This document shows positions 40,084 through 63,959 of a stretch of 64,000 nucleotides of DNA, one piece after another (the first letter of the stretch is position 1; each line of letters opens with the position of its first letter). The DNA is from Thermoanaerobaculia bacterium. Its GTDB lineage: Bacteria; Acidobacteriota; Thermoanaerobaculia; Thermoanaerobaculales; Sulfomarinibacteraceae. A program made the translations under genes and the position numbers. A model generated the notes under the pieces. The model ran no database searches. It was not told the DNA's origin and saw only the letters and a list, made by a program, of their open reading frames with translations. The DNA lies in contig JAMOWA010000008.1 in NCBI GenBank assembly GCA_027061805.1, positions 86-64,085 on the forward strand, given 5' to 3'.

Positions 40084-40165
40084 CACCTCCGGTGGCTGCC
40101 GTCCCCGGGTCCGCCGGGGACGGCTCCGCGGACCCGGGGACGGTGGGGAGCCGGCCACTCCGGGT

Positions 40166-40274: not shown

Positions 40275-40290
40275 GTTCCGATCTCGTAAC
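40275..40290. promoter_or_regulatory. Degenerate copy of the palindrome (GTTCC-N6-GTAAC)
   Basis: GTTCCgatctcGTAAC, one mismatch, about 95 bp upstream of P5. Confidence 0.4.
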
Positions 40291-40384
40291 ACCCTGCGGT
40301 GAGCCCACTTTCCCCGTCCGGAACATGTCAGCTCAAATCTTGCTCTGTCAACCATATAGGAGTGCATATCCGGGGCCGGGGCAC

Positions 40385-40400
40385 TGGCACATGGGTTGCA
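40385..40400 (+). promoter_or_regulatory. Candidate sigma54 promoter P5 (YeiH-like/dsrABD unit)
   Basis: TGGCACatgggTTGCA, exact TGGCAC-N5-TTGC, 50 bp upstream of ATG 40450. The track ATG 40396 lies inside the promoter. Confidence 0.75.
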
Positions 40401-40449
40401 CCTCTCCCGGGCCGGGAGAGCTGGGACCAGGGGGGAGAAGGAGGACGCG

Positions 40450-42096: not shown

Positions 42097-42151
42097 GGCA
42101 CGGGGGGAAAACAGGACCTGCGGGTCTGGGGAGACAAGGAAAGGAGTTGCC

Positions 42152-43345: not shown

Positions 43346-43354
43346 GAGGTATCC

Positions 43355-44431
43355 ATGGCTGTGGCAACCAGAAAGACGGACATCGGACCGCCGAATTACA
43401 AGCAGTTCCTTCCGCCCATCATCCAGAAGAACTACGGCAAGTGGGCGTACCACGAGATCCCCGAGCCGGGCGTCATGGTGCACGTGGCCGAGTCGGGCGA
43501 CAAGCTCTACACGGTCCGGGCGGGCACGCCTCGCCTGCTGGCCATCACCACCATCCGGGCGTTCGCGGACCTGGCGGACAGGTACTGTGACGGGTACATC
43601 CGCTGGACCAGCCGGCACAACGTGGAGTTCCTCCTGACCGATCCCTCGAAGATTCCGGCGCTCAAGAAGGACCTGGAGGAGCTGGGATTCCCGGTGGGCG
43701 GTACGGGCAACGCCATCTCCTCCATCGTCCACACCCAGGGGTGGGTCCACTGCCACTCCGCGGCCACGGACGCCTCCGGGGTGGTGAAGAGCCTCATGGA
43801 CGAGCTCTTCCCTCACTTCGTCAACATGGACCTGCCCGCCAAGCTCCGGGTGGCCTTTGCCTGCTGCCTGAACATGTGCGGCGCGGTGCACTGCTCCGAC
43901 ATCGCGGTCCTGGGCGTCCACACCAGGGCACCCACCATCGACCACGACGAGCTGCCCAAGGTCTGCGAGGTGCCGACCCTGGTCTCCTCCTGCCCCACCG
44001 GCGCCATCCGGCCGGCCACCGTGGACGGCAACGCCTCGGTGGAGATCGAGGAGGAGCAGTGCATGTACTGCGGCAACTGCTACACTGTCTGCCCCTCGGT
44101 GAAGATCAACAACGCCGAGACCGACGGCATCTCCATCTGGGTGGGCGGCAAGGTCTCCAACGCCCGCTCGGAGCCCAAGTTCTCCAAGCTCGCCATCCCG
44201 TACCTCCCCAACAATCCGCCGCGCTGGCCGGAGGTTGTGGAGGCGGTGGTCAACATCGTCAACGTCTACGCCCAGAACGCCCGGAAGCACGAGCGCCTGG
44301 GAGAGTGGATCGACCGCATCGGCTGGCCGCGCTTCTTCGAGCTCACCGGCATTCCGTTCACCAAGTACCACATCGACGACTTCAAGCACGCCGGCGAGAC
44401 CTACAAGCGGTCCGTCCAGCTGAAGCACTAG
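43355..44431 (+). CDS. dsrB: Dissimilatory sulfite reductase beta subunit
   Basis: [43 protein letters not shown], and ferredoxin domain [18 protein letters not shown]. Confidence 0.95.
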
Positions 44432-44440
44432 GAGGCGATC

Positions 44441-44689
44441 ATGAGTCAACCCACCGTGGAAGAGGTCGCCGACGCCATGTATGACCTGGTGAAGGCCACC
44501 CATGGCAAGAAGAACCTCAAGGCCATGGACCTCACCAAGGCCATGATCGAGAAGTTCGGCGACGACGCCGTGGACAAGAAACTGTGCAAGCTCGCGATCC
44601 GCCAGCTCATCGACTCGGGCCGGTGCATCTACAGCTACTTCGGTGGGTCGTTCATCACCCTGCCACCGGACGAGGATTCCGGGGGCTGA
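44441..44689 (+). CDS. dsrD: DsrD (small winged-helix protein of reductive-type dsr operons)
   Basis: 82 aa directly after dsrB. Lys-rich N-terminal part and a C-terminal ..LIDSGRCIYSYFGGSFITL segment comparable to the DsrD ..LEYWSSGSTTMYGL region. Call rests on size, position and pattern. Confidence 0.7.
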   Translation: MSQPTVEEVADAMYDLVKATHGKKNLKAMDLTKAMIEKFGDDAVDKKLCKLAIRQLIDSGRCIYSYFGGSFITLPPDEDSGG

Positions 44690-44698
44690 TGTCGAACC

Positions 44699-44733
44699 GT
44701 ACGGGGGCCGGGGTGCCCGGCCCCCGTACTTTT
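44699..44733 (+). terminator. Very strong hairpin + T-tract after dsrD (terminator/attenuator or mRNA-stabilising element)
   Basis: 14-bp perfect GC-rich stem gtacgggggccggg/cccggcccccgtac, 3-nt loop, then TTTTCC. Only 18 nt before the next ATG. Confidence 0.7.
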
Positions 44734-44751
44734 CCTACCAGGAGGCACAGC

Positions 44752-45195
44752 ATGGCCAAGGACAAGATGAGCGGTCCGGAACGCGTGGAACATACGATCC
44801 AGGTGCTTCGCGACTGGCAGAAGCTGGAGCGGGAAGCCATCGAGAACACCGCCGAGATCATGGAGAAGACCGGCAACCCGCTGATCCGGCAGTTCATGGA
44901 GATCATCCGCAACGACTCGGTGCAGCACCACCGGGTGCAGCAGTTCATCATCGACAGTCTCACCACCACGCCGGTGAAGCTGACGCCCGACGATCTCGCC
45001 GAGGTCTGGGACGCCATCGCGGCCCATGACGAGGTGGAGCGCAGGACCATCGAGATCGCCAAGGAGCTCAAGGAGGAGTGCCGCTTCTTCGTGCAGAAGG
45101 CCCTCCTGGAGTACCTGATCATCGACGAGGAGAAGCACGACCACCTCCTCGGCATGCTCGAGGAGTTCAAGAAGAAACTGTATCCCTACGGCTGA
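44752..45195 (+). CDS. Ferritin-like/rubrerythrin-like four-helix protein of unknown function
   Basis: 147 aa, all-helical. AGGAGG RBS. Paired acidic/His segments (EAIENTAE, VQHH, DEVE, EEKHDH). Family assignment is tentative. Confidence 0.5.
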   Translation: MAKDKMSGPERVEHTIQVLRDWQKLEREAIENTAEIMEKTGNPLIRQFMEIIRNDSVQHHRVQQFIIDSLTTTPVKLTPDDLAEVWDAIAAHDEVERRTIEIAKELKEECRFFVQKALLEYLIIDEEKHDHLLGMLEEFKKKLYPYG

Positions 45196-45232
45196 CCGTT
45201 CCGGCAGGGAGTGGGACGGGGGAGGCGTTCAG

Positions 45233-46975
45233 ATGGGTCTGTTGAAGAAGAAGGACACGAAGAAATCCAAGAGCCGCATGGCCCGGCTGGCGGGCGGCGG
45301 GGGTGGTTCGGGATCCGAGATCTCGCCGCTGAGGCCACAGTACGTGGAGAAGCTGCCCCCCTGCGTGGGGCACTGCCCCTCGGGGAACGACATCCGTGGC
45401 TGGCTGACCATCGTCGCCCAGCGTGACAAGCTCGGGCTCTCCATGGAGGAGGCCTGGGACCGCGCCTGGAGGATCGAGGTGGAGACCAACCCGTTCCCCG
45501 CCGTGATGGGGCGGGTGTGTCCCCATCCCTGCGAGGGCGAGTGCAACCGCAAGGTCAAGGACGGCGCGGTGGCCATCAACTCGGTGGAGCGCCTTGTGGG
45601 GGACTGGGGCCTCGAGCGGGGCCTCGCGCTTCCCACGCTGGACGTGGGAGGGCCCTTCGCCGAGAAGATCGCCGTGATCGGCGCCGGCCCCTCGGGGCTC
45701 TCGGTGGCGTACCAGCTGGCCCGCCGCGGCTACGGCGTGACCGTCTTCGAGGCCCTGCCCCATCCCGGCGGCATGCTCCGGTACGGGATCCCGGTCTACC
45801 GGCTGCCCCGGGAGGTCCTGGACGCCGAGATCCAGAAGATCCTCGACCTCGGCGTGGAGCTCCGCTGCGGTGTCAGGGTGGGTGAGGACATTCCCCTGGA
45901 CGAGCTGCGCAAGGAGTTCTCGGCCATCTACCTGGGCATCGGCGCCCACCAGGGCCGGAAGATGGGCATCCCGGGCGAGGACGGCGAGGGCGTCTACACC
46001 GGGACCGAGTTCCTCAGGCGGGCCAACGCCGGGGAACCTGTGACCGCGGGTGAGCGGGTGGTCATCATCGGTGGCGGCGACACGGCCGTGGATGCCGCCC
46101 GCGTCTCCAAGCGCCTCACCGCCGACTCGGCGGCCGTCTCGAAGCGGGCGGGCGCCCAGGTGACGATCCTGTACCGCCGGACCCGGGCCGAGATGCCGGC
46201 CATCGAACGCGAGATCGAGGAAGCCCTGGAGGAGGGAATTGAGATCGAGTTCCTTGCGGCACCCATCAAGATCGAGCGGGACGCCGACGGGAAGGTGACG
46301 AAGATGATCGTCCAGCGGATGGAGCTCGGGGAACCCGACGAGTCGGGCCGCCGGCGCCCGGTTCCCGTGGAGGGCGACACCTTCGAGCTGGAATGCGACA
46401 CGGTGATCATGGCCGTCAGCCAGCAGCCCGAGCTGGCACCGCTGGCCAGGGCCCTCGGCGTGGAGGGTTCCTGGCTGGACTCCGACGAGTGGGGCCGCAC
46501 CGGCATCGACGGCATCTGGGCCGGTGGCGATGCCCTGGGCCTGGGCCTGGCCACCATCTCCATCGGCCAGGGCCGCAAGGCGGCCGAGTCCATCCACGCC
46601 ACGCTCCGCGGGGAGGAGCTGCCCGAGGGCGACACGCGGCCGCCCATCGGGCCCGACGGCCTCAAGATCGACTGGTACCCGCCCCTCGAGCGGAACGAGA
46701 GGACCGTGCTCTCCCCCGAGGAGAGGCTGGCCCGGCCGCTCGACGAGATCGATCTGGGGATCACCAGGGAGCAGGGCCTGGACGAGGTGATGCGCTGCTT
46801 CTCCTGCGGCCTGTGCTTCAACTGCGAGAACTGCTGGATGTACTGCCAGAACTCGTGCTTCAAGAAGGTGCCCGATCCCAGCCCCGGCAACTACTACACC
46901 ATCAGCCTCGGCACCTGTGACGGGTGCAAGAAGTGCTGGGAGGAGTGCCCCTGCGGGTACCTCGAGGGGCACTAG
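45233..46975 (+). CDS. dsrL: DsrL (GltD-like NAD(P)H:acceptor oxidoreductase with C-terminal ferredoxin domain)
   Basis: CVGHCP..VCPHPCEGEC. Two Rossmann motifs, VIGAGPSG and VVIIGGGDTAVDAA. C-terminal CFSCGLCFNCENC and CDGCKKCWEECP. Confidence 0.85.
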   Translation: MGLLKKKDTKKSKSRMARLAGGGGGSGSEISPLRPQYVEKLPPCVGHCPSGNDIRGWLTIVAQRDKLGLSMEEAWDRAWRIEVETNPFPAVMGRVCPHPCEGECNRKVKDGAVAINSVERLVGDWGLERGLALPTLDVGGPFAEKIAVIGAGPSGLSVAYQLARRGYGVTVFEALPHPGGMLRYGIPVYRLPREVLDAEIQKILDLGVELRCGVRVGEDIPLDELRKEFSAIYLGIGAHQGRKMGIPGEDGEGVYTGTEFLRRANAGEPVTAGERVVIIGGGDTAVDAARVSKRLTADSAAVSKRAGAQVTILYRRTRAEMPAIEREIEEALEEGIEIEFLAAPIKIERDADGKVTKMIVQRMELGEPDESGRRRPVPVEGDTFELECDTVIMAVSQQPELAPLARALGVEGSWLDSDEWGRTGIDGIWAGGDALGLGLATISIGQGRKAAESIHATLRGEELPEGDTRPPIGPDGLKIDWYPPLERNERTVLSPEERLARPLDEIDLGITREQGLDEVMRCFSCGLCFNCENCWMYCQNSCFKKVPDPSPGNYYTISLGTCDGCKKCWEECPCGYLEGH

Positions 46976-46996
46976 GGCAGGGTCCGGGGGAAGGCG

Positions 46997-48400
46997 ATGC
47001 AACTCGAGACACCCCGCGTGGTGGTGGCCGGTCTGGCCGGGGACAGCGGCAAGACGCTGGTGACCCTCGGCCTGGCCCGGGCCCTCACCGTGAGGGGTGT
47101 CCGTGTTGCACCGTTCAAGAAGGGGCCCGACTTCATCGACACGGGCTGGCTTTCCGCCGCTGCGGGAACCGTGGCCCGGAACCTGGACACCTTCCTGATG
47201 CCGCCGGAGGGGATCGGCGAGGCCGTGGCCCGGTCGCTGCCCGCCGACCTGGTCCTCGTGGAGGGCAACCGCGGGCTCTACGACGGCATGGATGCTGCGG
47301 GCAGCTGCTCCACGGCCGAGCTGGCGGTGCTCCTGGGGGCGCCGGTGCTCCTGGTGGTCGATGTCACCAAGAGCACACGGACCGTGGCGGCCCTGGTGAA
47401 GGGGTGCCAGGTGCTGGATCCCCGGGTGGACCTGGCCGGCGTGATCCTCAACCGGGTGGGGACCGCCCGCCAGGAGCGTGTGATCCGCGACGCCATCGCC
47501 GCCGCGGGCGGTCCGCCGGTGGTGGGCGCCATCCCCCGGATGCGGGGAGAGGATCCCCTGCCGGGACGGCACCTGGGTCTCGTCACGGCCGTGGAGCGAC
47601 CGGACAGCGAGGCGGCCGTGGAACGGGCCGCTGCCGTGGTGGCGGAGCACGTGGACCTGGAGGCCGTGCTGGCCGTCGCCCGCACCGCGGGGCGGGTGGA
47701 GCTTCCGGAGATGTCCATGACCACCGGACGGAGGGCCACCCGCGTGGCGGTCTTCAGGGACGAGACCTTCAGCTTCTTCTACCCCGAGAACCTGGAGGCC
47801 CTGGAGGCGGGGGGGGCGGAGCTGCTCTGGGTCTCGCCCCGGCAGGACCGGCCGCTGCCCCCGGACGTGGATGCCGTCTACATCGGTGGAGGCTTCCCCG
47901 AGCTGGCGGTGCGGGAGCTGTCCGCGACCTCCGAGCTCAGGGACTCCCTGGCCGGGGCGTGTTCACGGGGGCTGCCGGTCTTCGCCGAGTGCGGCGGCCT
48001 GATGCTCCTCGCCCGCGAGCTGGTGGTGGACGGGACCGCCTGGCCCATGCTCGGGGTCCTGGACCTGGTGGTGGAGCACACGGACAGGCCCCGGGGACAC
48101 GGGTACGTCCTGGGGACGGTGGACCGCCCCAACCCCTTCTTCCCCGTCGGACAGGAGATCAGGGGCCACGAGTTCCACTACTCTCGGGTGGTGGGCGGGA
48201 GTGACCGGAACACCACGGTGATGACGCTCCAGCGCGGGACCGGTGTGGAGGCGGGACGTGACGGTGTGGTGCGGGGCAACATCTGGGCCTCCTACACCCA
48301 CCTCCACGCCCTGGGAACGGTCATCTGGGCCGGAGGCTTCCTCGAGGCCGCGGTGTCGTGGCACAACGACGGGCCGGGGACGGCCGTGGCATGGGCCTGA
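46997..48400 (+). CDS. dsrN: DsrN (cobyrinate a,c-diamide synthase family; siroheme amidase in dsr context)
   Basis: 467 aa. CbiA-type N-terminus VVVAGLAGDSGKT and a C-terminal glutamine amidotransferase domain (ECGGLM). Confidence 0.85.
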   Translation: MQLETPRVVVAGLAGDSGKTLVTLGLARALTVRGVRVAPFKKGPDFIDTGWLSAAAGTVARNLDTFLMPPEGIGEAVARSLPADLVLVEGNRGLYDGMDAAGSCSTAELAVLLGAPVLLVVDVTKSTRTVAALVKGCQVLDPRVDLAGVILNRVGTARQERVIRDAIAAAGGPPVVGAIPRMRGEDPLPGRHLGLVTAVERPDSEAAVERAAAVVAEHVDLEAVLAVARTAGRVELPEMSMTTGRRATRVAVFRDETFSFFYPENLEALEAGGAELLWVSPRQDRPLPPDVDAVYIGGGFPELAVRELSATSELRDSLAGACSRGLPVFAECGGLMLLARELVVDGTAWPMLGVLDLVVEHTDRPRGHGYVLGTVDRPNPFFPVGQEIRGHEFHYSRVVGGSDRNTTVMTLQRGTGVEAGRDGVVRGNIWASYTHLHALGTVIWAGGFLEAAVSWHNDGPGTAVAWA

Positions 48401-48909
48401 AGGAGCAGGTCATGGAGCTTCTCGCGGCAGGGCGCCAGGACGAGCTCGCCGGGCTTGCCGCCGGGAACCGGAGGGTGGTCCGTCACCTGGTGGGACGCCT
48501 GTGGGATCCGGACCCCGTGGTCCGGCGGGCGGCGGCCCGGGCCCTTGGCGAGGCGGCGGCCCTCCATCCGGACCTGGGCCGCGACGTGGTGCGGCGCCTG
48601 CTGTGGGCGCTCAACGACGAGTCCGGGGCGGACGGCAGGGATGGCCTGCTGGGCCTGGGCTGGATCGGCCGCGCCGCACCGGGGCTGCTGGCCCCGCACG
48701 TGGGTGCCCTGGTGGAGATGGCCTGGGACGACGGGCTCAGGGTCCGCCTCCTGGAGGCCCTGTGCGTGGCGGCGGAGGGTGCACCGGAGCTGCTCGAGCC
48801 GCACGTGGATCGGCTCGGGGAATGGATCGACGAATCCAATGACGACGAGGTCCGCCTGTGGCAGCGGCTCAGGGCCCTCGTCGAAGGGGGGGGCACACAT
48901 GCCAGCTGA
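48391..48909 (+). CDS. HEAT-repeat protein
   Basis: ATG 48391 overlaps the dsrN stop. DPDPVVRRAAARALGEAA-type repeats. Confidence 0.6.
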   Translation: MGLKEQVMELLAAGRQDELAGLAAGNRRVVRHLVGRLWDPDPVVRRAAARALGEAAALHPDLGRDVVRRLLWALNDESGADGRDGLLGLGWIGRAAPGLLAPHVGALVEMAWDDGLRVRLLEALCVAAEGAPELLEPHVDRLGEWIDESNDDEVRLWQRLRALVEGGGTHAS

Positions 48910-49489
48910 GAGCCTGAAGGAACGGATCGAACGGTGCCGGGCCCGGGTGGAGGAGAAACCGGACTCCGCCGTGGCCCACTACAACCTGGGTCTTGCCTAC
49001 ACCCAGCGGGGCTACGTGGACCGGGCGGAGGCCGAGTACCTCAGGGCCGTGGAGCTGGACCCGTCGCTGGGGGAGGCCTGGATCAACCTCGGGGGCGCCC
49101 GGCTGCTCAAGTGGGACTTCGAGGGGGCGCTGGAGGCCGTGAAGCGGGGCGTGGAGCTCCGGGACGACCACCCCGTGGCCCACTACAACCTCGGGCAGGC
49201 GTGCCTCTACCTGGGCGATGCCGAGGGCCTCGTGGCGGCCAACCGGCGGGTCATCGAGCTGGAGCCGGAGAACGGCGCCGCCCACTACTTCCTGGCAGTG
49301 GGGCTCCTGGCCCTGGAACGCCGGCAGGAGGCCGAGGCCGCGCTGTCCCGGGCCATGGCCCTGGGGCACCGGCCGTCACCCGAGTTTCTGAAGAAGCTCA
49401 ACCGGCCTCCCGCGCAGGGGCCGGCAACCCTGACTCTGAACGAACAATCGGGAGCCGCCGAGGCCCCAGGAACAGAAAAGGAGGTTTGA
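48899..49489 (+). CDS. TPR-repeat protein
   Basis: ATG 48899. Repeated AHYNLGLAY / AWINLGGA / AHYNLGQA / AHYFLAVG TPR signatures. Confidence 0.75.
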   Translation: MPAESLKERIERCRARVEEKPDSAVAHYNLGLAYTQRGYVDRAEAEYLRAVELDPSLGEAWINLGGARLLKWDFEGALEAVKRGVELRDDHPVAHYNLGQACLYLGDAEGLVAANRRVIELEPENGAAHYFLAVGLLALERRQEAEAALSRAMALGHRPSPEFLKKLNRPPAQGPATLTLNEQSGAAEAPGTEKEV

Positions 49490-49490
49490 G

Positions 49491-49808
49491 ATGCCCACAT
49501 TCACGTACGGAGATCTCTCGATCGAGGTGGACGAGGACGGCTTCATGCAGGAGCCGGAGCAGTGGAACGAGGAGGTGGCCAAGGCACTGGCGACGACGGA
49601 AGGTGTCGATGAGCTCACCGACGAGCACTGGAAGGTCGTCAACTACCTTCGGGAATACTACCTCCAGTTTGGCGTGGCTCCCATGATCCGCAAGCTCTGC
49701 AAGGAGACCGGCTTCAACCTGAAGAAGATCTACGAGCTCTTCCCCTCCGGTCCGGCCAAGGGCGCCTGCAAGGTGGCGGGGCTGCCCAAGCCCACCGGCT
49801 GCGTCTGA
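49491..49808 (+). CDS. dsrC: DsrC (TusE/DsrC/DsvC family) with both conserved C-terminal cysteines
   Basis: 105 aa. Ends CKVAGLPKPTGCV (Cys-x10-Cys-Val). Strong RBS AAAGGAGG. Confidence 0.95.
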   Translation: MPTFTYGDLSIEVDEDGFMQEPEQWNEEVAKALATTEGVDELTDEHWKVVNYLREYYLQFGVAPMIRKLCKETGFNLKKIYELFPSGPAKGACKVAGLPKPTGCV

Positions 49809-50792: not shown

Positions 50793-51500
50793 TCAGAGCC
50801 CCAGGAAGATCATGGCCAGGCCGGAGGCGGCGATGACGGCGCCGGCCATGGCGTGGGCCCAGCGTTCGAGGCCGCCGAGGGGGAGGCGCCTGAGCCCCTC
50901 CGTTCCCAGCAGAACCAGGGCAACCATGATGGCGATGGTGACCACCCCGAACAGCCCGCCCGTGAGGGCGGCGAGGCCCCATCGTCCCCGGGCTGCCGGG
51001 AGCATGAACAGCGGGATCAGGGGCTCGCAGGGGCCGAGCACGAAGACGATGAACAGGGTCCAGAAGGTGGTGTCCGCGGTCACGCGGTGGTCGTGCCCGT
51101 GGGCGTGGCTGCCATGGGCGTGCACGTGGACAGCTCCGTCATGGGCATGGAGCGCGAGGTCCCGCTGCTGGCGAAGGGCCCGCCGTGTGCCCCACACCAG
51201 GTAGGCCAGGCCGAAGCCCACGAGGAGCCAGGCCGCGATCCCACCGCGGACGCCCTCGAAGGCCTCCACCCTCGCCAGGGCCACGCCGGCCGCCACACCC
51301 ACCAGCCCCAGGAGGATGGAGCTGGCCACGTGCCCCACGCCGCAGGCGGCGGTGATGGCAGCGGTCCGTGTCCGGCTCCATCCGCGGACCCGGGCCAGCA
51401 TGATGAAAGGCAGGTAGTGGTCGGGGCCCATGGCGGTGTGGGCCACCGCGATTCCCACCGTGGCGATGAGCACGTCCAGGGAAAAGGTGTCGAGGCTCAT
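50793..51500 (-). CDS. NicO/RcnA-like nickel/cobalt transporter-family membrane protein with a His-rich loop
   Basis: Start MSLDTFSL (ATG 51500). AHTAMGPDH motif. Loop HAHDGAVHVHAHGSHAHGHDH. 6 TM. The upstream part of the track ORF is repeat DNA. Confidence 0.55.
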   Translation of the reverse strand: MSLDTFSLDVLIATVGIAVAHTAMGPDHYLPFIMLARVRGWSRTRTAAITAACGVGHVASSILLGLVGVAAGVALARVEAFEGVRGGIAAWLLVGFGLAYLVWGTRRALRQQRDLALHAHDGAVHVHAHGSHAHGHDHRVTADTTFWTLFIVFVLGPCEPLIPLFMLPAARGRWGLAALTGGLFGVVTIAIMVALVLLGTEGLRRLPLGGLERWAHAMAGAVIAASGLAMIFLGL

Positions 51501-51518
51501 GGCATGCTCATGGTAGCA

Positions 51519-52272
51519 GGGGAGGGACGGGAGGTGAGGCGGTGAGGGTGTGAGGGCGTGAGGGCGGGAAGTGGAGGGGACATGGGCGGGAGCGCAGGGG
51601 CGAGGGGGAGCAGGGGAGCAGGGGAGCAGGGGAGCAGGGGGGTCGATCGCCGTCGGGGTCACGGACACGGACACGGATACGGACACGGCCACGGTCACGG
51701 CCACGGTCACGGCCACGGACACGGCCACGGTCACGGCCACGGACCCGAACCCGGACACGGGCACGGACGGGGGCGCAGGGGAGCCGATCCCGGACACGGG
51801 CACGGACCCCGACACGAACACAGGCACGGACATCGTCACCGACAGGGACACCGATACGGACACGGTCACGGACACGGACGCGGACACGGACGCGGACACG
51901 GACGCGGACACGGTCACGGGCACGGACGGGGGCGCAGGGGAGTCGATCACGGACACGGTCGCCGACCCGGATCCCGACGCGGGCGCCGTTCCCGATCACC
52001 GCCCACGGCCGCCGCTCCCGTCCGCCGTCCACCGCCCCGGCTGTCCTTGACCCTGTCCCTGATCCCGGCCCCGACCCTGACGCCGACACCGACACGGACA
52101 CCGCCACGGGCACGGCCACGGGCACGGACACGGGCACGGCCACGGGCACGGTCACGGTCACGGACACGGGCAGGGTCACCGTCACGGACACGGGTCCTTC
52201 TCCGGGTGGGCGGGGGACGCCTTCACGTCTTCACGCCCTCACGCCCTCACGCCCTCACGTCCTGACCTCCCC
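51519..52272. repeat. Composite repeat locus D with inverted terminal 8-bp arrays
   Basis: Left GTGAGGNN array (51531-51568). G-run block (51597-51642). Three hexamer arrays separated by gggggcgcaggggagNcgatc junctions. Junction motif ccgggtgggcgggggacgccttcac (52202-52226). Right array CTTCACGT/CCTCACGC (52221-52265), the reverse complement of the left array. Confidence 0.85.
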
Positions 52273-52312
52273 ACCGGGCGGTGCTGTACCCTGACGGGCG
52301 CGGGAGGTGTCC

Positions 52313-53080
52313 ATGGTGCGAAGGGCGCTGCTCATGGCCTCGGGTGCGAACCGCGGGGCATACTATGCGGGGTTCATGGGTCCGATCCGGGAGGCGGGCC
52401 TGGACTTCGGGATCCTGGCCGGGGTGTCGGCGGGGGGCATCGCCGCGGCCTGGTTCGCTGCGGGGAGCGAGGAGGCGTTGCTGGCCTCCTGGCGGGAGGC
52501 CGGAAGGTGGCGCATCGCGCTCCACCCCTGGCTCCAGGCCGGGCGTTTCCGCACGGTGGACCGGCTGATCCAGGAGATCACCCTGAAGATCATGGATCTC
52601 GAGGCCGTCCTCGGGTCCCCTGCCGAGGTGCGGCTGGTGGCGTCGAGGATCGCAGGGCCGGGTTTCCCACTGCCACGGCTCGAACGGCGTGTCTTCTCCA
52701 GCCGGGAGATCGGAGACACGACGGAGCTGGGCCTTGTGCTGCGGGCCACGGCCTTCGTGCCGTGGATCAACGGTTTCAGGGCCTCCGTCCGGATCGGCGG
52801 GGAACGCTACCTGGATGGCGGGCTCACGGGAAGGGTGCCGCTCGAGCTGATCCGTCCGGGAGAGGTGGACGAGATCTGGGTGGCCGCGTGCTCGCCCAAC
52901 GGCCGGAGGGAGCTCGACAGCGAGCTCGAGCGGTTCTCGGGCCGGCCGGAGCGCCTGGTGGTGATCACCCCCTCACGGCCTCTGCCGGTGGAACGCTGGA
53001 CCACGGAGGAGAGCAAGATCTTCGAGGCCATCGAACTGGGACGGAGGGACATGGAGGAGGCCATCGCCAGAGCTTCATGA
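52313..53080 (+). CDS. Patatin-like phospholipase
   Basis: Oxyanion region ASGANRGAYYAG, GxSxG motif GVSAGG, catalytic Asp in YLDGGL. ATG 52313 is 6 nt after GGGAGG. Confidence 0.8.
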   Translation: MVRRALLMASGANRGAYYAGFMGPIREAGLDFGILAGVSAGGIAAAWFAAGSEEALLASWREAGRWRIALHPWLQAGRFRTVDRLIQEITLKIMDLEAVLGSPAEVRLVASRIAGPGFPLPRLERRVFSSREIGDTTELGLVLRATAFVPWINGFRASVRIGGERYLDGGLTGRVPLELIRPGEVDEIWVAACSPNGRRELDSELERFSGRPERLVVITPSRPLPVERWTTEESKIFEAIELGRRDMEEAIARAS

Positions 53081-53087
53081 GCGGGAG

Positions 53088-54203
53088 TCAACTCCCGTGG
53101 GAGACCAGGAAATTTCTGTAGGCCTCCAGGGTGCCCTCCACCATGGCGTCGGCCGAGAAGTGCTTCAGGGCCCGGCGCCGGCCGGCTGCAGCGAGACGGG
53201 TGCGGAGCCCCCCGTCCTCCAGCATCCGGAAGAGGCGCCCGGCAAGCCCGGCGGGGTCCCGGGGTTCGGCCAGGAGCCCGGTCTCGCCGTCGAGGACGAT
53301 CTCGGGGATGCCGCCGGCCCGTGTGGCCACCACGGGGAGGCCCGCCATCTGGGCGTCCACGATGGCCGTGCCCAGCCCCTCCATGTGGGAGGGAAGGACG
53401 AAGAGATCCAGGCTGCCGAGAATGGAGGGGACATCCTCCCGGTGGCCCAGGAAGCGGAGGTGCTCCGGACCGAGGCCCAGGGTGCGTGCCCGCGCCTCCA
53501 GGTCGCCGCGAAGCTCCCCGTCCCCCACCAGGAGGAAGAGCGCTTCCGGGTGGCGCTCCACCACGGCCGGGATGGCCTCCAGGAGGTAGCGGTGGCCCTT
53601 GTGATCGGTGAGGGCGGCCACCGTTCCCACGAGGACGCGGTCTCCGGCCACACCCAGCTCCTCCCGAAACCTCTCCCGGCCACCGGACGGGATCTCCGGG
53701 GGCTCCACGCCGGAATGGACCACATGGATCCGCTGGCGGGGGAGCCCGGCATCCACGAGCACGCGAGCCACGGCCTCCGAGATGGCGATGACCCCACCGG
53801 CTGCGCGCCGGTACTTCCACCGGCTGAATGGATCGCGGCCGGGGGCGAAGTCCACCCGGCGCGTGGGCACCAGGAGCGTCCGCCAGCTGCCCGGGAGCAG
53901 ACCCGCCAGAGCCCCCAGCCCGTGGGAACGGGCCGAGTGGAGGCCCACCACGGCGGGGCGGCGCTCCCTCATGAGGCGGGCCAGTGCCAGGACGGTCGCC
54001 GGGTCCGCCTCGCCCCGTCCCGGTACCTCCACGATGGGGACGTCCGCCTCCACCAGCCGGCGGGCCAGCTCCCCATCCCTCCGGACCACGGCGGTGACGG
54101 GGTGTCCCCGCCGCGCCAGGCCGGTGCAGAGCAGGAAGACCTGGCGCTGCCCGCCGCGCCATCCGGGCTCCACGTCCACCTGGAGTGTGGGGAGGGGCTC
54201 CAT
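53088..54203 (-). CDS. Glycosyltransferase family 4 (GT-B fold)
   Basis: 371 aa. N-terminal GGQRQVFLLCTGLARRGH. C-terminal EGLGTAIVDAQMAGLPVVATRAGGIPE motif. Confidence 0.85.
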   Translation of the reverse strand: MEPLPTLQVDVEPGWRGGQRQVFLLCTGLARRGHPVTAVVRRDGELARRLVEADVPIVEVPGRGEADPATVLALARLMRERRPAVVGLHSARSHGLGALAGLLPGSWRTLLVPTRRVDFAPGRDPFSRWKYRRAAGGVIAISEAVARVLVDAGLPRQRIHVVHSGVEPPEIPSGGRERFREELGVAGDRVLVGTVAALTDHKGHRYLLEAIPAVVERHPEALFLLVGDGELRGDLEARARTLGLGPEHLRFLGHREDVPSILGSLDLFVLPSHMEGLGTAIVDAQMAGLPVVATRAGGIPEIVLDGETGLLAEPRDPAGLAGRLFRMLEDGGLRTRLAAAGRRRALKHFSADAMVEGTLEAYRNFLVSHGS

Positions 54204-55428: not shown

Positions 55429-56265
55429 TCAGGACTCCAACCGGGCCCTGTCACGCCACGTGGCGAAGTCCTTGCGCGCCAGTGTCATCATGAGCGTCGG
55501 GCTGATGCGGGCGATCCACCACATGATCCTGGCCAGGCCCGTCACCGTGATGATCCGCTTCTTCCGGGCCACGCCGCGGAGCATCACGCGGGCGCACTCC
55601 TCCGGCGAGACGCCAAGACGGATCCACAGCCTGACGGCCTTGAGGACGCAATCGCGGTCCATGTTGACGAACCTGGCGCCCGTGACGATGTTGGTCCTGA
55701 TCCATCCGGGACAGACGACGCTGACATCGACCCCGAGATCCTTGCCCTCGACCCACAGACCCTCGGAGAGTCCCACGACGCCGAACTTCGTCGTGACGTA
55801 GGACACGGTGGCGGGGAAGGGTATGAGTCCCTCCACCGAGGCGACGTTGACGATGTGGCCGTGGCCCTGCCTCACCATCTGCTTGTAGGCCAGCAGCGAA
55901 CCGTGAACGACCCCGTCCAGGTTCACCGAGAGGACCTTCCGCCAGTCCTCGATCTCCGTGTCGCGGACCTCGCCGACGATGGCGAGACCGGCGTTGTTGA
56001 AGATGTAGTCCAGTCGTCCGTGGTGGGCGACGGTCCCGTCCACGACCTGTTTGAATGCGTCGTGGTCGCTGACGTCCAGCTTCATGGTGGTCACGGCCCT
56101 GCCCTGCTCCACGAGGGGCGCCATGGCCTCCTCGAGCAGGGTTTCGTTGATGTCGGTGGCGACGACACGGGCGCCGAATCCGGCCAGCTGTTCGGACACG
56201 GCCCTGCCGATGCCGGACGCCGCCCCCGTGATGAGGCAGACCTTGTCGCGGTACACGTTCTTCAT
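55429..56265 (-). CDS. SDR-family oxidoreductase
   Basis: CLITGAASGIG, NNAG, and YVTTK catalytic motif. 278 aa with a C-terminal extension. Confidence 0.85.
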   Translation of the reverse strand: MKNVYRDKVCLITGAASGIGRAVSEQLAGFGARVVATDINETLLEEAMAPLVEQGRAVTTMKLDVSDHDAFKQVVDGTVAHHGRLDYIFNNAGLAIVGEVRDTEIEDWRKVLSVNLDGVVHGSLLAYKQMVRQGHGHIVNVASVEGLIPFPATVSYVTTKFGVVGLSEGLWVEGKDLGVDVSVVCPGWIRTNIVTGARFVNMDRDCVLKAVRLWIRLGVSPEECARVMLRGVARKKRIITVTGLARIMWWIARISPTLMMTLARKDFATWRDRARLES

Positions 56266-56278: not shown

Positions 56279-57544
56279 TCACCGTTCCAGGATGTGGATC
56301 ACCAGGGTGGCCTCCTCGTTGCCGATGTTGCCCCCGCCGTTCTCGGCCAGGGCCAGCCGGGCGCCCTCCACCTGGCGTGATCCGGCCTCGCCGCGGAGCT
56401 GCAGCACGAGCTCGTGGATCTGGGCCAGTCCCGAGGCGCCGATGGGGTGCCCACGGCACTCCAGGCCACCCGACGTGTTGATGGGGAGCCTCCCCCCGAT
56501 GGTGGAGTGGCCCTCCATGGCGAAGACGCCGCCCTCGCCGGGGGGGGCGAAGCCCAGGGCCTCCGCCTGGTGCAGCTCCCCGAAGGCCGTGGCGTCATGG
56601 ATCTCCGCCACGTGAAGATCGTCCGGTCCCAGGCCGGCGGCCTCATAGGCCGCCCTGGCCGTCCGGACGGCGATGTCGCCCTCGAAATCGTCGATCCCCC
56701 GGTTGGTCCCGGTCCGGAGCTCCGAGGCCCGGATCCTCACGGCCCTGGAGTTTCCGGAGCGGCGGACCACCTGGTCGGGCACGACGATGGCCGCGGCGGC
56801 CCCGTCCCCGATGGGCGCACACATGGATCGTGTCAGGGGCCAGGAGACGAGACGGTCTTCCAGGACCTCCTCCGGCGTCATGGGGATGCGGATCTGGGCC
56901 CTGGGGTTGTCGACGGCGTGGTTGTGGTTCTTGGCGGCGATGACGGCGAGCTGCTCGGGCGTGGAGCCGAGCTCGGCCATGTGCCACAGGGCGAAGGCCG
57001 CATAGACGTCCATGAACACCGTGCGCTGGCCGCCGTCGTCGGCCGGCATGCGGGAGGCCAGCTCGGGGCGTTGCTCCCGGAGCCGGGCAACGGCTCCCTG
57101 GCGCAGACCGATCAGGCGGCCCAGGTGCTCCTCGGCGTGGGCCACGTCCAGGGCCGTGAGGAAGGCGCCGAACATCTTGCCCGTGTCCGCGTTGAAGATC
57201 TTCTCGGCACCCAGGGCGAGGACGATGCCGTACTGGCCCGCCGCCACGGCGGTCCGGGCCAGGTGCAGCGCCGTGGAGGCGCCGGAGCAGGCATTCTCCA
57301 CGTTGACCATGGGCCTGCCGGCAAGCGGTGTTCCCTGGAGGGCCACCTGAGCACGGATGCAGTGCTGGTCGTCGAAGTAGCCCCAGGTGGAGTTGGAGAA
57401 GAAGACGGCGTCGATGGCGTCCAGGGAGAACCCGGCGTCCCCGGCGGCCTCCGTGGCCGCCTCCATCGCCAGGTCGGCGAGACTCCGTTCGGGGTGCCGG
57501 GCGAAGACCGTCTGCCCGACGCCGGCGATCCACGCGTCGTGCAT
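56279..57544 (-). CDS. Thiolase-family protein (SCP-x/lipid-transfer-type 3-ketoacyl-CoA thiolase-like)
   Basis: Start MHDAWIAGVG (ATG 57544). Active-site Cys in VENACSGAS. C-terminal NTSGGLECRGHPIGASG. Confidence 0.8.
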   Translation of the reverse strand: MHDAWIAGVGQTVFARHPERSLADLAMEAATEAAGDAGFSLDAIDAVFFSNSTWGYFDDQHCIRAQVALQGTPLAGRPMVNVENACSGASTALHLARTAVAAGQYGIVLALGAEKIFNADTGKMFGAFLTALDVAHAEEHLGRLIGLRQGAVARLREQRPELASRMPADDGGQRTVFMDVYAAFALWHMAELGSTPEQLAVIAAKNHNHAVDNPRAQIRIPMTPEEVLEDRLVSWPLTRSMCAPIGDGAAAAIVVPDQVVRRSGNSRAVRIRASELRTGTNRGIDDFEGDIAVRTARAAYEAAGLGPDDLHVAEIHDATAFGELHQAEALGFAPPGEGGVFAMEGHSTIGGRLPINTSGGLECRGHPIGASGLAQIHELVLQLRGEAGSRQVEGARLALAENGGGNIGNEEATLVIHILER

Positions 57545-58407
57545 CACGAGTCTCCGTCGCCCGCGGCACGCTCCTGGAGCCACTGCTCGTACTCCAGGGT
57601 GACCTCGCCGGCCTTCTCCAGGATCTGGGGAAGGATCTCCACGGCTTCCGGCATGGGGCCGGTTCCGGCCTTGAAGGGTTCCCAGAACCAGTCGTCGGTG
57701 TTCTTGATCATGGGGATACCGTCGCCGGAGAACGCACCGAAGTGGTAGGCGAAGGTGGCGATCAGCATCTCGTAGATCTTGTCCATGCTGAACGAGCCCT
57801 TCATCTCCGGGCGGTTGTACCACTCCTGGAAGATGCCCCGGTTCAGGGGGCCGACGGAGTTGGCGATGATGGCATCCATGCCCGGCATCATCCCGAGAAT
57901 CAGGGCTGCCGCACCGTAGGAGCCCTGCTGGCGGGAGTCGACGTTCTTGGCGTAGATGGCCGCCGAGGCCTGTGCCAGGGCGATGCCGAAGTCCATCATC
58001 AGCCAGTTGCAGGCCGGACCGTAGCCGAACATCCCGGCCGACTTGTTCTCGTTGGCGAAGCGGTTGAACTCGCCGCAGGTGGGGAAGCCGCAGGCCCCGC
58101 AGTCCCAGGCCAGGGGCGAGGGCGAGGTCTTGGCGCCGATCAACAGGATGGCGTAGGGCTGGTTCTGTTCGAGGAACCGCTTGCCCATGAGGTAGTCGCC
58201 GTAGATGAACTGGGAGTAGGCTCCCTCGGGACCGGCGAAGATCTCCAGGAGGCGGACCATGAAACCGATCTCCTCGCCATGGACGATCCGGGTCTCCAGC
58301 TCGAGGCTGGGGGTCAGCCGGGGTGCGCCGAGGGCCGCCGCGGCACCATCCTTGGCAGCCTGCAGGATCAGTTCGAACGTGTAGTCCTTCTCAGTGAGAA
58401 TCGGCAT
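57544..58407 (-). CDS. DUF2148-like ferredoxin-domain protein (paralog B)
   Basis: 287 aa. LAWDCGACGFPTCGEF motif and GPACNWLMMDFGIALAQA segment, matching the DUF2148/COG4739 pattern as I recall it. TGATG overlap with the thiolase gene. Confidence 0.55.
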   Translation of the reverse strand: MPILTEKDYTFELILQAAKDGAAAALGAPRLTPSLELETRIVHGEEIGFMVRLLEIFAGPEGAYSQFIYGDYLMGKRFLEQNQPYAILLIGAKTSPSPLAWDCGACGFPTCGEFNRFANENKSAGMFGYGPACNWLMMDFGIALAQASAAIYAKNVDSRQQGSYGAAALILGMMPGMDAIIANSVGPLNRGIFQEWYNRPEMKGSFSMDKIYEMLIATFAYHFGAFSGDGIPMIKNTDDWFWEPFKAGTGPMPEAVEILPQILEKAGEVTLEYEQWLQERAAGDGDS

Positions 58408-58410
58408 GGC

Positions 58411-59190
58411 TCACTCCTTCTCCGGGTCGTCGCCGGACCCCTTGGTCCACCTGGGATACCAGGTCTTGTAGTCGTACCAGTAGACCCCGCGAAGCGTGAC
58501 GAACATCTTGCGGAGGTCGTCCTCCATGGTGGCCAGGTTGTGGAGGTGGTAGTCCGGCAGGACATCGACGTAGGGGTTCTTCTGACGGGACGACATCAGG
58601 ATGGCGACCTTGATCCAGGAACGGGGCAGGATGCCCATCCGCTGGGCGGCCACGGAGACCGTGTAGAAGGGCATGGCGTCCACCAGGAGCCGCTGGGTGA
58701 TGACCATGGCCGACCCGACGGCGATCCCGAGGTCGAGGTTTCTCGGCACGCACATGGGCCCGTGGAAGGGGACCTTCGCCCGCTCCTCCGGGGAGACGGC
58801 GGTCAGGTCGATCACGCCGTGCTCGGTCTTCCTGGCGTTGTAGACGAAGGAGCAGTCCATCCGGCCGGCGCAGAAGCCGCACCCCGCGTCCAGGGGTGTC
58901 CCGGCCGACCGGTAGTGGCCGATGACCAGGCAGACGTCGGACTCGCGGGCCATGACGGTCTCGTAGAGGAAACGGCGCTTGACGTGGCCGGAGAACTTGT
59001 GGGACTCGCGCTCCATGACGTCGGCCAGCGCCAGGAGATCGTCCCCCGTCAGGATCTCGCACTCGACGCCGTCCACACCGCCGGCCTTGGGCGCCGTCAG
59101 GGCGGCGTTGGCCGCGAGCCGGGCCACCTCGAGGGTGTGATTCTTCTGCGCCCGGTTGTAGGGCTCGAACTCGTAGATCTTTTCTCTCAT
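58411..59190 (-). CDS. DUF2148-like ferredoxin-domain protein (paralog A)
   Basis: 259 aa. AALTAPKAGGVD, DAGCGFCAGRMDC, GPMCVPRNLDLGIAVGSA and SRQKNPYVD segments, typical of DUF2148. Confidence 0.6.
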   Translation of the reverse strand: MREKIYEFEPYNRAQKNHTLEVARLAANAALTAPKAGGVDGVECEILTGDDLLALADVMERESHKFSGHVKRRFLYETVMARESDVCLVIGHYRSAGTPLDAGCGFCAGRMDCSFVYNARKTEHGVIDLTAVSPEERAKVPFHGPMCVPRNLDLGIAVGSAMVITQRLLVDAMPFYTVSVAAQRMGILPRSWIKVAILMSSRQKNPYVDVLPDYHLHNLATMEDDLRKMFVTLRGVYWYDYKTWYPRWTKGSGDDPEKE

Positions 59191-62449: not shown

Positions 62450-62465
62450 AGCAAGAAGCGTTCCA
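62450..62465 (-). promoter_or_regulatory. Candidate sigma54 promoter P6 of the SCP2-ACAD-ligase-DUF2148-thiolase operon
   Basis: The minus strand reads TGGAACGcttcTTGCT with canonical spacing, 44 bp upstream of ATG 62406, facing away from the divergent sigma54 activator gene. Confidence 0.65.
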
Positions 62466-62612
62466 CGGTCCCTCGCTTCACCGGGCTCTGGCTAAGGTCC
62501 CTTTTCTATGGAACTTGTGGAAGGGGACGATCCGAAGGGGGCACGCCGGGCAAGGGGTTCTGTTTGCACGATTGCGATCAATGGCCACGAAATCTGTGGT
62601 AGATTCTTTTTC

Positions 62613-63959
62613 ATGAGTAAGTTGCAGGAACGCAATCGAATTGCAGCATTGCAACTCGTGGAGCGGCGCCTCTTCGAGTCGTTGCCGTTGGGCATCTTCG
62701 TCCTCGACCATCGGGGCGTGGTACTGGCGATCAACGGCCAGCAGGAGATCAACTCGGGGATCACCCGCGAGGAGGTGGAGGGCCGGTCCATCACCGAGCT
62801 CTTCGGCAGCGTGTTGCAGAAGTACGGACTCGTGGAACCCCTGGAGCGGCTCCTGGCGGACGGGACGCCCTTCCAGACCGAGATCGAACGGTACGAACCG
62901 CAGTTCCTCCGCACGATGGTGCGGTTCCGTCTCTGGGGCTACAGCCTGGTCCCGGATGAGCTGTACGTGGTCCTGACGGACGGCGTCGACACGGAACACC
63001 CTGGTGTGCCGGAAATCGTCGGCGAGAGCGATGCCATGGAACGGGTCTTCTGGCTCATCGAGCGGGCGGCGCGGGTGGATGCCACCGCCCTGATCCTCGG
63101 CGAGACCGGCACCGGCAAGGAGCTCGTCGCCCGCGCCATCCACAGCCGGAGCGCACGGCGCAGGGGGCCCTTCCTGGCGGTCAACTGCGGTGCGCTGCCC
63201 GAACAGCTCCTGGAATCCGCACTCTTCGGCCATGAGCGGGGCGCCTTCACGGGGGCGGAGCGGCGGGTCAAGGGCTATTTCGAGGCCGCCCACGGGGGGA
63301 CGCTCCTGCTGGACGAGATCGGCGAGACGAGCCCGGCCTTCCAGGTCAAGCTCCTGCGCGTGCTCGAATCGGGGAGGGTGACCCGGCTGGGGGGCACGGT
63401 GCCCATCGAGACGGACGTCCGGGTGCTCTGCGCCACCAACAGGGAGCTCGGAGACGAGGTCCAAACGGGGCGGTTTCGCAAGGACCTCTACTACCGGATC
63501 AACGTTCTCCAGATCCGCCTTCCGGCACTCCGGGAGCGGATCGAGGACCTGCCCCTCCTGGTGACCCGCTTCCTGCAGGAGGCGATCCAGAAGCATGGAC
63601 TTGGGGAGAAGACCATCTCACAGCCCGCACTGGAGCGTCTCCGGACCCATGCATGGCCGGGCAACGTGCGGGAGCTGGCCAACGTCATCGAATCGGCCTA
63701 CATCGTGGCGCCCGGCAGGGTCCTTCAGGAGCACCACCTCCCCCGGCGGATCCTGGAGGCCACGGAGGCTGGCGAGGCCTCGGGTGGGGGAACGGGGGTG
63801 CCCACCCCCTACGAGGAGGCCCGGCGCCGTTTCCAGCGGGAGTACCTGGAGCAGGTCCTGCGGCTCGCTGGTGGCGACATGAAGGCCGCCGCCCGCCTGG
63901 CCGGCGTGCACCCCTCCACGCTCTACAGGATCCAGATGAGGTCGGCACGGAAGGGGTAG
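62613..63959 (+). CDS. Sigma54-dependent transcriptional activator (PAS sensor + AAA+ + Fis-type HTH)
   Basis: ATG 62613. Walker A GETGTGKE. Sigma54-contact loop ESALFGHERGAFTGA. C-terminal HTH AAARLAGVHPSTLYRI. Confidence 0.9.
   Translation: MSKLQERNRIAALQLVERRLFESLPLGIFVLDHRGVVLAINGQQEINSGITREEVEGRSITELFGSVLQKYGLVEPLERLLADGTPFQTEIERYEPQFLRTMVRFRLWGYSLVPDELYVVLTDGVDTEHPGVPEIVGESDAMERVFWLIERAARVDATALILGETGTGKELVARAIHSRSARRRGPFLAVNCGALPEQLLESALFGHERGAFTGAERRVKGYFEAAHGGTLLLDEIGETSPAFQVKLLRVLESGRVTRLGGTVPIETDVRVLCATNRELGDEVQTGRFRKDLYYRINVLQIRLPALRERIEDLPLLVTRFLQEAIQKHGLGEKTISQPALERLRTHAWPGNVRELANVIESAYIVAPGRVLQEHHLPRRILEATEAGEASGGGTGVPTPYEEARRRFQREYLEQVLRLAGGDMKAAARLAGVHPSTLYRIQMRSARKG

Follow-up and report, generated by a model that had tools for sequence, protein, structure and literature searches.

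A pair of adjacent genes of the DUF2148 family, designated DUF2148-A and DUF2148-B (A and B), was analysed in a stretch of 64,000 nucleotides from a Thermoanaerobaculia bacterium (assembly GCA_027061805.1, contig JAMOWA010000008.1, positions 86 to 64,085 of the forward strand), which is referred to below as the window. The pair lies on the minus strand inside a beta-oxidation-like operon that has no enoyl-CoA hydratase gene. The new results were the predicted nitroreductase-like fold of both subunits, the A-to-B pairing at 89/89 related loci and the profile of neighbouring genes at 62 dereplicated loci. Together they point to a heterodimeric [4Fe-4S] oxidoreductase with a nitroreductase-like fold that would act directly on an acyl-CoA intermediate, a reading to which a probability of roughly 45% was assigned. 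It was preferred because a redox fold, two fully ligated clusters, strict hetero-pairing and partner enzymes of CoA-thioester metabolism would come together in one small module. The underlying observation, a DUF2148 pair in a hydratase-less operon, came from a first-pass annotation of the window and proved real and robust, while its interpretation was supported in part. The pair probably performs an undescribed step in anaerobic organic-acid breakdown.

Family assignment and conserved cysteines

The open reading frames (ORFs) of A and B were real at the minus-strand positions given in Table 1. Their third-position GC content (GC3) was 0.91, compared with about 0.9 across the minus-strand gene run, which is typical of the real genes of the window (GC content given as 68–70% or 65–72%). 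The DUF2148 assignment of the first-pass annotation was borne out by the PF09918 profile (gathering threshold 25 bits), which was matched by A with 55.7 bits and by B with 34.6 bits. Both Cys motifs quoted there were also present (DAGCGFCAGRMDC in A; WDCGACGFPTC in B, invariant). A and B shared 25% identity over 120 aa and had a homology probability of 99.2% in a profile-profile comparison and, judged from their sequences, they are diverged paralogs.

Both proteins were longer than the archetype of about 190 aa, as had been noted; short-form DUF2148 proteins measured 177–190 aa (P0010, P0011 and many further entries). The extra length of A included an insertion of approximately 27 aa between Cys3 and Cys4, and C-terminal extensions relative to the short archetype were present in both A and B. 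The start codon of A was kept across homologs. Four Cys were invariant in A (C104, C107, C113 and C147; alignment A1) and four in B (C103, C106, C111 and C133; alignment A2), and K204 and R227 were also invariant in A. The four-Cys motif CxxCx4-5C...C was common to A, B and the short forms P0010 and P0011 (PF09918/COG4739), in which an Asp after Cys4 is likewise conserved. However, the short forms are single-copy genes in unrelated and uninformative contexts (e.g. shikimate kinase, DUF2148 and acyltransferase; P0011), whereas A and B are long, paired in the order A to B and located in acyl-CoA operons.

The CX2CX4C spacing of B produced a weak match to PF04060, the RnfB/CFeSP-type FeS domain (19.2 bits, cut-off 23). 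No Fer4-type profile or motif (CxxCxxCxxxCP) was found in A or B in the Pfam scan, and a sequence search of both proteins against all PDB chains gave no match even at E ≤ 10. Homology of A or B to crotonase (PF00378) or MaoC (PF01575) was not detected with Pfam either. The inserted loop of each subunit would hold one fully Cys-ligated [4Fe-4S] cluster on its four-Cys motif (CX2CX4-5C...C). Since all four Cys are invariant, clusters for electron transfer fit better than the three-Cys Lewis-acid cluster of a hydratase.

Predicted fold

AlphaFold2 (AF2) models of A and B were compared with the PDB by Foldseek, and the best 50 matches of each were considered. The model of A had a mean predicted local distance difference test score (pLDDT) of 62, with 80–90 in the core, and that of B had a mean of 77 and showed a long C-terminal helical extension. 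Proteins with the nitroreductase/FMN-reductase fold accounted for 50/50 best matches for A and likewise for B, including the C-terminal domain of FbiB, putative nitroreductases of anaerobes, iodotyrosine deiodinase (IYD), BluB, NfsA and NfsB. The best match of A was 4xoo (E 6.5e-5, TMt 0.54), while the best match of B had an E value of 6e-3 with TMt 0.46–0.51. No nitroreductase-family Pfam match was obtained for A or B at E ≤ 0.01.

According to these models the fold of both subunits is nitroreductase-like, with the overall alpha+beta arrangement of NfsA/B, the FbiB C-terminal domain, iodotyrosine deiodinase and BluB. The first-pass annotation had described the two as ferredoxin-domain proteins; because both AF2 models match only nitroreductase-fold proteins, that name is, on the modelled structures, a misnomer here. 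A and B differ from the nitroreductase superfamily in lacking detectable sequence similarity and the RxSxR motif, in having an inserted four-Cys loop and in being predicted to form a heteromer instead of a homodimer. Proteins with the nitroreductase fold are obligate dimers whose active sites are at the interface, so that a heterodimer of two paralogs would naturally explain the gene pair, and A and B would form such a heterodimer. A dimer is also formed by AlbA, a protein with the nitroreductase fold (PMC11055893).

Distribution and strict pairing

Searches for A returned 11 relatives in 5.8 billion protein clusters. B had 24 relatives by single-sequence search and 84 by profile at E ≤ 1e-20, and the B profile matched 356 proteins at E ≤ 1e-3 among 1.84 billion 50%-identity representatives, 44 of which (E ≤ 1e-30) corresponded approximately to the long B type. 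The closest relatives of B were 96% and 89% identical and belonged to metagenome-assembled genomes (MAGs) of Thermoanaerobaculia and Acidobacteriota, and a B protein of identical sequence was encoded by an ENA metagenome contig of 104.8 kb. When 185,579 species genomes were scanned for WDCGACGF, 142 relatives were recovered, from which 80 loci were kept. All of these (80/80) were from MAGs of anaerobes, with Thermoanaerobaculia, Desulfobacterales, Thermodesulfobacteriota, Desulfomonilia, Syntrophomonadaceae, Abyssobacteria, Dehalococcoidales and others represented. Overall, at least 62 distinct operon contexts in Acidobacteriota, Desulfobacterota, Bacillota and other phyla contained the pair. 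No cultured host was found among the named homologs, every one of which came from a MAG or a metagenome. The family is small, and A and B form a distinct long-form, paired subfamily of PF09918.

The pairing seen in the window behaves as an obligatory one: at each of the 89 loci, which all stem from anaerobes known through MAGs or metagenomes, a gene for A was located directly upstream of B on the same strand, and the gap had a median of 3 nt. Fusion of the two genes was considered for ORFs of 389–477 aa and rejected, as these were upstream-extended B ORFs that overlapped a separate A gene. A literature search on DUF2148, COG4739 or PF09918 found no relevant paper, and the same was true for a nitroreductase fold with 4Fe-4S and acyl-CoA and for a DUF35-thiolase with a ferredoxin-like protein.

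Gene neighbourhoods of related loci

ORFs were called in 90 sources, namely the 89 loci plus the final 20 kb of the window, and clustered, in a clustering of our own, by all-against-all BLASTP, with labels taken from Pfam annotations and scans of representatives. Shares were calculated for genes within six positions of the pair at the 62 dereplicated loci. CoA ligases were found at 68% of these loci (PaaK-like 47%, FadD-like 21%), thiolases of the SCPx/BbsB type at 63%, acyl-CoA dehydrogenases (ACADs) at 55% and SCP2-like or DUF35 proteins at 44%. Lower shares were recorded for short-chain dehydrogenases/reductases (SDRs; 24%), crotonases (13%), OYE/BaiCD-like Fe-S flavoenzymes (10%), classical nitroreductases (10%) and electron-transfer flavoproteins (ETFs; 5–8%). 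The acyl-CoA operon context, first read from the window, was thus recovered across the related loci of anaerobes.

Two architectures recurred. Type I, the architecture of the window, consisted of genes for an SCP2-like protein, ACAD, ligase, A, B, thiolase and SDR, to which a 3beta-HSD-like gene was added in some cases, and was accompanied by a sigma-54 activator. Type II consisted of a PaaK-like ligase, DUF35, thiolase, A and B, with ACAD as an optional member, and was accompanied by a histidine kinase and a sigma-54 response regulator. Redox proteins adjoined the pair at L006 (a Fer4_22 protein and a NAD-binding/DHODB Fe-S protein), OYE-type enzymes were encoded near it at L040 and L059, and ferredoxins were found at some loci.

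Three further groups of genes were observed at the related loci. A Cys-rich protein of 436 aa with two PCGSGGR motifs was encoded directly 3' of DUF2148-B at four loci (L031:10908-12218, L029, L050 and L058); it had no NCBIfam match and may act as an additional, third component in certain versions of the system. In Type I operons the thiolase gene was repeatedly followed by classical nitroreductase-family genes that carried an RRSIR motif, together with a gene for a 131-aa membrane protein (L027:13507-15300, L045, L049, L053, L074, L080 and L089), so that two different nitroreductase-fold systems co-occur there. In addition, inspection of the sequence alone indicated a glycyl-radical-enzyme-like protein of 805 aa at L040 (17598-20015) and L059, both from Desulfobacteraceae. 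Its gene was accompanied by a TetR regulator and an amidohydrolase_2 gene, a few genes from the pair and the OYE-type reductases, and this putative neighbour may link the pair to the activation of hydrocarbons or aromatic acids.

Proposed role

The first-pass annotation had suggested an Fe-S-dependent step on an acyl-CoA, which could be hydration/dehydration, reduction or isomerisation. That interpretation held for the pairing, the family, the acyl-CoA and anaerobic context and the lack of a hydratase. Hydration became less likely given the four-Cys ligation and the redox fold, and the likeliest role moved from hydration to redox chemistry. Family membership, the invariant Cys, the fold class, the strict pairing, the operon partners and the lack of a hydratase are shown here; the heterodimer, its clusters, any flavin or other organic cofactor, the substrate and the direction in which electrons flow are inferred. 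In the favoured scheme, one or more active sites would lie at the dimer interface and would be asymmetric owing to the two paralogs. The substrate would be the CoA thioester produced by the ligase of the operon, and the enzyme would remove or add two electrons at the bond adjacent to the thioester or at a conjugated unsaturation. The clusters would connect A and B to ferredoxin or another Fe-S partner, and the product would pass to the SDR and the SCPx-type thiolase. The operon as a whole would represent a sigma-54-induced catabolic route, probably for a hydrophobic carboxylic acid, in a sulfur-metabolising anaerobe. Members of the nitroreductase superfamily transfer hydride or electrons to activated C=C, C-N and nitro groups. 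Their characterised chemistry includes alpha,beta-dehydrogenation next to a carbonyl (PMC11055893). The acyl-CoA neighbours, the redox proteins adjoining the pair at some loci, the weak FeS-domain match of B and the dsr genes of the window also speak for the oxidoreductase reading.

Several points weigh against a substrate-acting oxidoreductase. The Foldseek scores were modest (TM 0.3–0.58), with a best E value for B of only 6e-3, and both AF2 models were of moderate confidence, with the Cys loops as low-confidence regions. Comparison of A and B with classical nitroreductases of related loci by hhalign gave a probability of about 1%; this was non-significant, so the nitroreductase link stands at the level of the fold only. 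Alignments A1 and A2 showed that A and B lack the RxSxR FMN-phosphate motif, whereas it was invariant among the classical nitroreductases that neighbour related loci (alignment A3). Because this motif is absent and there is no sequence-level tie to flavin-binding nitroreductases, a flavin is unproven. In addition, a redox role alone leaves the missing hydratase, and often a missing alcohol dehydrogenase, unexplained. Finally, action of A and B on an acyl-CoA, like all evidence on function, rests on gene context.

Enzymatic gaps persist in how anaerobes degrade hydrophobic, branched, alicyclic and aromatic acids, and many lineages known only from MAGs carry operons that cannot be read. A and B constitute a compact, strictly conserved two-gene module with cofactor predictions and consistent acyl-CoA partners, which makes one DUF family directly testable. 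If the pair is a substrate-acting Fe-S enzyme, it would represent a new reaction type for the nitroreductase fold and would change the annotation of hydratase-less beta-oxidation-like operons in anaerobes.

Missing hydratase and alternative roles

Pfam searches found no crotonase or MaoC domain in the operon and none in the ORFs scanned from approximately 12.3 to 54.2 kb of the window. A profile derived from 12 related-locus crotonases and a MaoC sequence query also found none in any six-frame ORF of the 64-kb window. The canonical beta-oxidation set is therefore incomplete in the window, with ligase, ACAD, SDR and thiolase present and hydratase absent, and most related loci were alike. The absence claimed in the first-pass annotation thus held, and no hydratase gene was found just outside the operon within the 64 kb. 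Within co-directional runs of genes the crotonase share fell to 6%, from 13% within six positions of the pair, which indicates that the absence is a general trait and not a local accident. MaoC was found at 2/62 dereplicated loci, which correspond to three loci of the list, and one further match was weak. No recurring crotonase or MaoC family was found among the unlabelled ORFs of co-directional runs (69/76 scanned).

A hydratase and the pair occurred together at 10/62 loci, while hydratase and alcohol dehydrogenase (SDR or iron-containing alcohol dehydrogenase, Fe-ADH) were both absent at 36/62. A separate count covered the 36 dereplicated loci that had a thiolase together with a ligase or an ACAD: 16 had neither hydratase nor SDR/Fe-ADH, 12 had the dehydrogenase only, 6 the hydratase only and 2 both.

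The broadest claim compatible with the results is that A and B form a new class of ferredoxin-linked, nitroreductase-fold Fe-S enzyme which replaces the FadB-type middle of beta-oxidation and takes enoyl-CoA to the beta-oxygenated or 3-oxo level, alone or with an SDR. This claim was judged rather unlikely but a realistic possibility; if true, it would define a new, hydratase-independent variant of beta-oxidation for bulky or hydrophobic acids in strict anaerobes.

Under an alternative, the role listed first in the first-pass annotation, the pair would stand in for the hydratase, hydrating the 2-enoyl-CoA made by the ACAD or dehydrating an unusual hydroxyacyl-CoA with the help of Fe-S clusters and perhaps of radicals, and the SDR and thiolase would finish the cycle. 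The lack of any crotonase or MaoC ORF in the window and their low shares at related loci speak for it. So does the position of the pair between ACAD/ligase and thiolase/SDR in the window and its close relatives, and anaerobes offer precedents in 4-hydroxybutyryl-CoA dehydratase and the 2-hydroxyacyl-CoA dehydratases. However, the four invariant Cys leave no open Fe site, unlike in aconitase-type or three-Cys hydro-lyases, the predicted fold comes from a redox superfamily and housekeeping hydratases encoded elsewhere could serve. A one-for-one replacement of the hydratase fails to explain the family, because 10/62 loci have both, 36/62 have neither hydratase nor SDR/Fe-ADH and several operons have no ACAD. 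This alternative was considered unlikely.

The 16 loci with neither enzyme and the two loci with both bear most directly on a FadB-equivalent function, in which A and B would carry out hydration and two-electron oxidation from enoyl-CoA to 3-oxoacyl-CoA, with the Fe-S clusters as the exit for the electrons. The cycle would then be complete with ligase, ACAD, A/B and thiolase. Such a function would best explain those 16 loci and the minimal operons, made up of genes for a PaaK-like ligase, DUF35, thiolase, A and B, which recurred at L007, L039, L042, L047 and L073. Yet this chemistry is without precedent in the nitroreductase fold, the SDR of the window operon would be redundant, and the evidence is purely contextual in operons that often leave steps to be supplied in trans. 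A FadB-equivalent was therefore regarded as very doubtful.

The pair could also be a pure electron carrier that replaces ETF and shuttles electrons between ACAD (or OYE-type enzymes) and ferredoxin or the membrane without binding acyl-CoA. Four-Cys clusters suit electron transfer, ETF genes were rare near the pair at loci of which 55% had an ACAD, and no ETF was found in the scanned part of the window (approximately 12.3–64 kb). ETF is usually encoded elsewhere anyway, though, and the long conserved extensions of two diverged paralogs exceed what a carrier needs. The idea was downgraded because thiolase and ligase were steadier partners than ACAD, which was not nearby at 45% of loci, and because EtfAB and the pair share one operon at L063, L065 and L023; it was held to be highly improbable. 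As a residual case, the steps absent from the operon may be provided in trans and the pair may have an unforeseen role.

Relation to known systems

The bbs operon, which serves the beta-oxidation of benzylsuccinate, encodes BbsEF, the ACAD BbsG, the crotonase BbsH, the SDR BbsCD and BbsAB, which consists of a DUF35 protein and a thiolase. The window operon resembles it in operon logic in an anaerobe and in thiolase type, as its thiolase matched BbsB in the PDB (7pxp) and scored 204.7 bits on the BbsB model, although this was far under the cut-off of 750 bits. In contrast to the window, bbs has a crotonase, no DUF2148 and activation by a CoA-transferase instead of a ligase. The small accessory protein is DUF35 in bbs and at many related loci, and SCP2-like in the window.

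Among Fe-S acyl-CoA dehydratases, 4-hydroxybutyryl-CoA dehydratase has an ACAD-like fold and the 2-hydroxyacyl-CoA dehydratases are HGD-D/BcrBC-like; their clusters are not fully Cys-ligated, and the 2-hydroxy type needs an activator ATPase. These enzymes are a conceptual precedent only, for an Fe-S step on a CoA thioester in strict anaerobes, and their folds are unrelated to those of A and B; no similarity of A or B to them was found in Pfam or in PDB sequence searches.

The cyclodipeptide oxidase AlbAB is encoded by two genes that often overlap, has a nitroreductase-fold subunit and performs alpha,beta-dehydrogenation next to a carbonyl (PMC11055893). It differs from A and B in that AlbB is unrelated to AlbA, covalent FMN is used without Fe-S clusters, and the substrate is not a CoA ester. 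Fe-S clusters are combined with a nitroreductase domain in NR1 and NR2 of Giardia (PMC7938412). In these proteins, unlike in A and B, a separate N-terminal ferredoxin domain is fused to a classical nitroreductase, and a CoA-ester substrate is again not involved. Neither AlbAB nor the Giardia proteins are architectural homologues of the pair.

Operon layout and partner enzymes

The genes of the operon and its flanks are listed in Table 1. The tight packing described in the first-pass annotation, with overlaps of 1–4 nt and gaps of 3–13 nt, was reproduced. Upstream of the pair the gaps were 4 nt (SCP2-like/ACAD) and 3 nt (ACAD/ligase), and the ligase and A genes overlapped by 4 nt. A and B were separated by 3 nt, B and the thiolase overlapped by 1 nt (ATG start) or 4 nt (GTG start), and the gap between thiolase and SDR was 13 nt. 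The second SDR gene followed 184 nt downstream, as had been claimed, and may or may not be co-transcribed with the operon.

Table 1. Genes and regulatory element of the DUF2148 operon region, with positions in the window.
Feature	Position	Strand	Remarks
SCP2-like protein, 135 aa	61999-62406	-	First gene of the operon; weak assignment
Acyl-CoA dehydrogenase (ACAD), 413 aa	60753-61994	-	All three ACAD domains (Pfam)
AMP-forming acyl-CoA ligase, FadD-like, 520 aa	59187-60749	-	PF00501 and PF13193
DUF2148-A, 259 aa	58411-59190	-	PF09918
DUF2148-B, 287 aa	57544-58407	-	PF09918
SCPx/BbsB-type thiolase, 421 aa	56279-57544	-	Thiolase_C_1 and Thiolase_N
SDR, 278 aa, candidate 3-hydroxyacyl-CoA dehydrogenase	55429-56265	-	adh_short, 175.7 bits
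Second SDR, 268 aa	54438-55244	-	adh_short; NCBIfam PRK08267, 297 bits (cut-off 261)
Sigma-54 -24/-12-like element TGGAACGCTTCTTGCT	62450-62465	-	One mismatch to TGGCAC-N5-TTGCW
Divergent PAS-domain sigma-54 enhancer-binding protein	62508-63959	+	Sigma54_activat, AAA_lid_14, HTH_8 and PAS domains

Pfam and NCBIfam agreed on the ACAD, ligase, thiolase and both SDRs. The best NCBIfam match of the ligase was PRK06155, under its cut-off. The nearest named NCBIfam relatives of the ACAD were ACADs of anaerobes, all under their cut-offs, and its best PDB matches were short-chain ACADs. The best PDB matches of the thiolase were 6hsj (SCP2-thiolase type-1), 7pxp (BbsB) and 6esq (an archaeal thiolase). 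A specific pathway or substrate was sought through NCBIfam for the ligases, ACAD, OYE, crotonases and 3beta-HSD-like gene and was rejected, as all matches were under the equivalog cut-offs.

The SCP2 label is a weak one. The copy in the window had no Pfam match and no match in the PDB profile search, while 13/23 members of its family had weak PF02036 matches (best E 8e-4); the family was found at 24% of related loci. The proposal of a lipid-like or cyclic acid as substrate is a guess and was weakened.

The -24/-12-like element was located 43 nt 5' of the ATG of the SCP2-like gene. A window-wide scan for the sigma-54 consensus gave 19 matches against 19.3 expected, i.e. no enrichment, and because this count was not above chance only the position of the element is suggestive. 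The divergent PAS/sigma-54 protein is likely the activator of the operon and its substrate sensor, and the same divergent arrangement recurred at the related loci L001 and L003.

Host and other features of the window

A dissimilatory sulfite reductase (dsr) island was found at 30121-49808, with two DsrMK-like modules, a Fer4_11 protein and an NrfD/cytochrome c3 fusion. It also contained a dsrA/dsrB-like NIR_SIR pair (41987-44431), a DsrL/GltD-like protein (45119-46975), a DsrN-like amidase (46976-48400) and DsrC (49440-49808). These genes, together with the relatives of B in Thermoanaerobaculia and Acidobacteriota MAGs, indicate that the host is an uncultured sulfur-metabolising anaerobe. Exact sigma-54 consensus sequences (TGGCAC-N5-TTGCW) on the plus strand were present at 35205-35220, at the start of a dsrK-like ORF, and at 40385-40400, at the start of an ORF for a YeiH-like membrane protein just 5' of dsrAB; these sequence matches hint at sigma-54 control of the dsr genes.

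A row of genes at 18939-26065 encoded an HdrA/GltD-like CCG-domain flavoprotein, a NuoG-like molybdopterin oxidoreductase and a NuoF-like FMN/Fe-S subunit, which together resemble a soluble electron-transfer complex linked to formate or NAD(P)H. Genes for a patatin-like phospholipase (plus strand) and a GT4 glycosyltransferase (minus strand) were located between the operon and the dsrC region (52307-54203) and are unrelated to the finding. Finally, a hexanucleotide tandem array (CACGGA x44, 51660-51927) encoded an (S/T)V repeat at the N-terminus of a minus-strand ORF at 50793-51956, the C-terminal half of which was a His-rich membrane protein with no Pfam match. A second array, CACGGG x17 (or a 12-nt unit, CACGGACACGGG, x9), was located upstream of the same ORF at 52087-52194.

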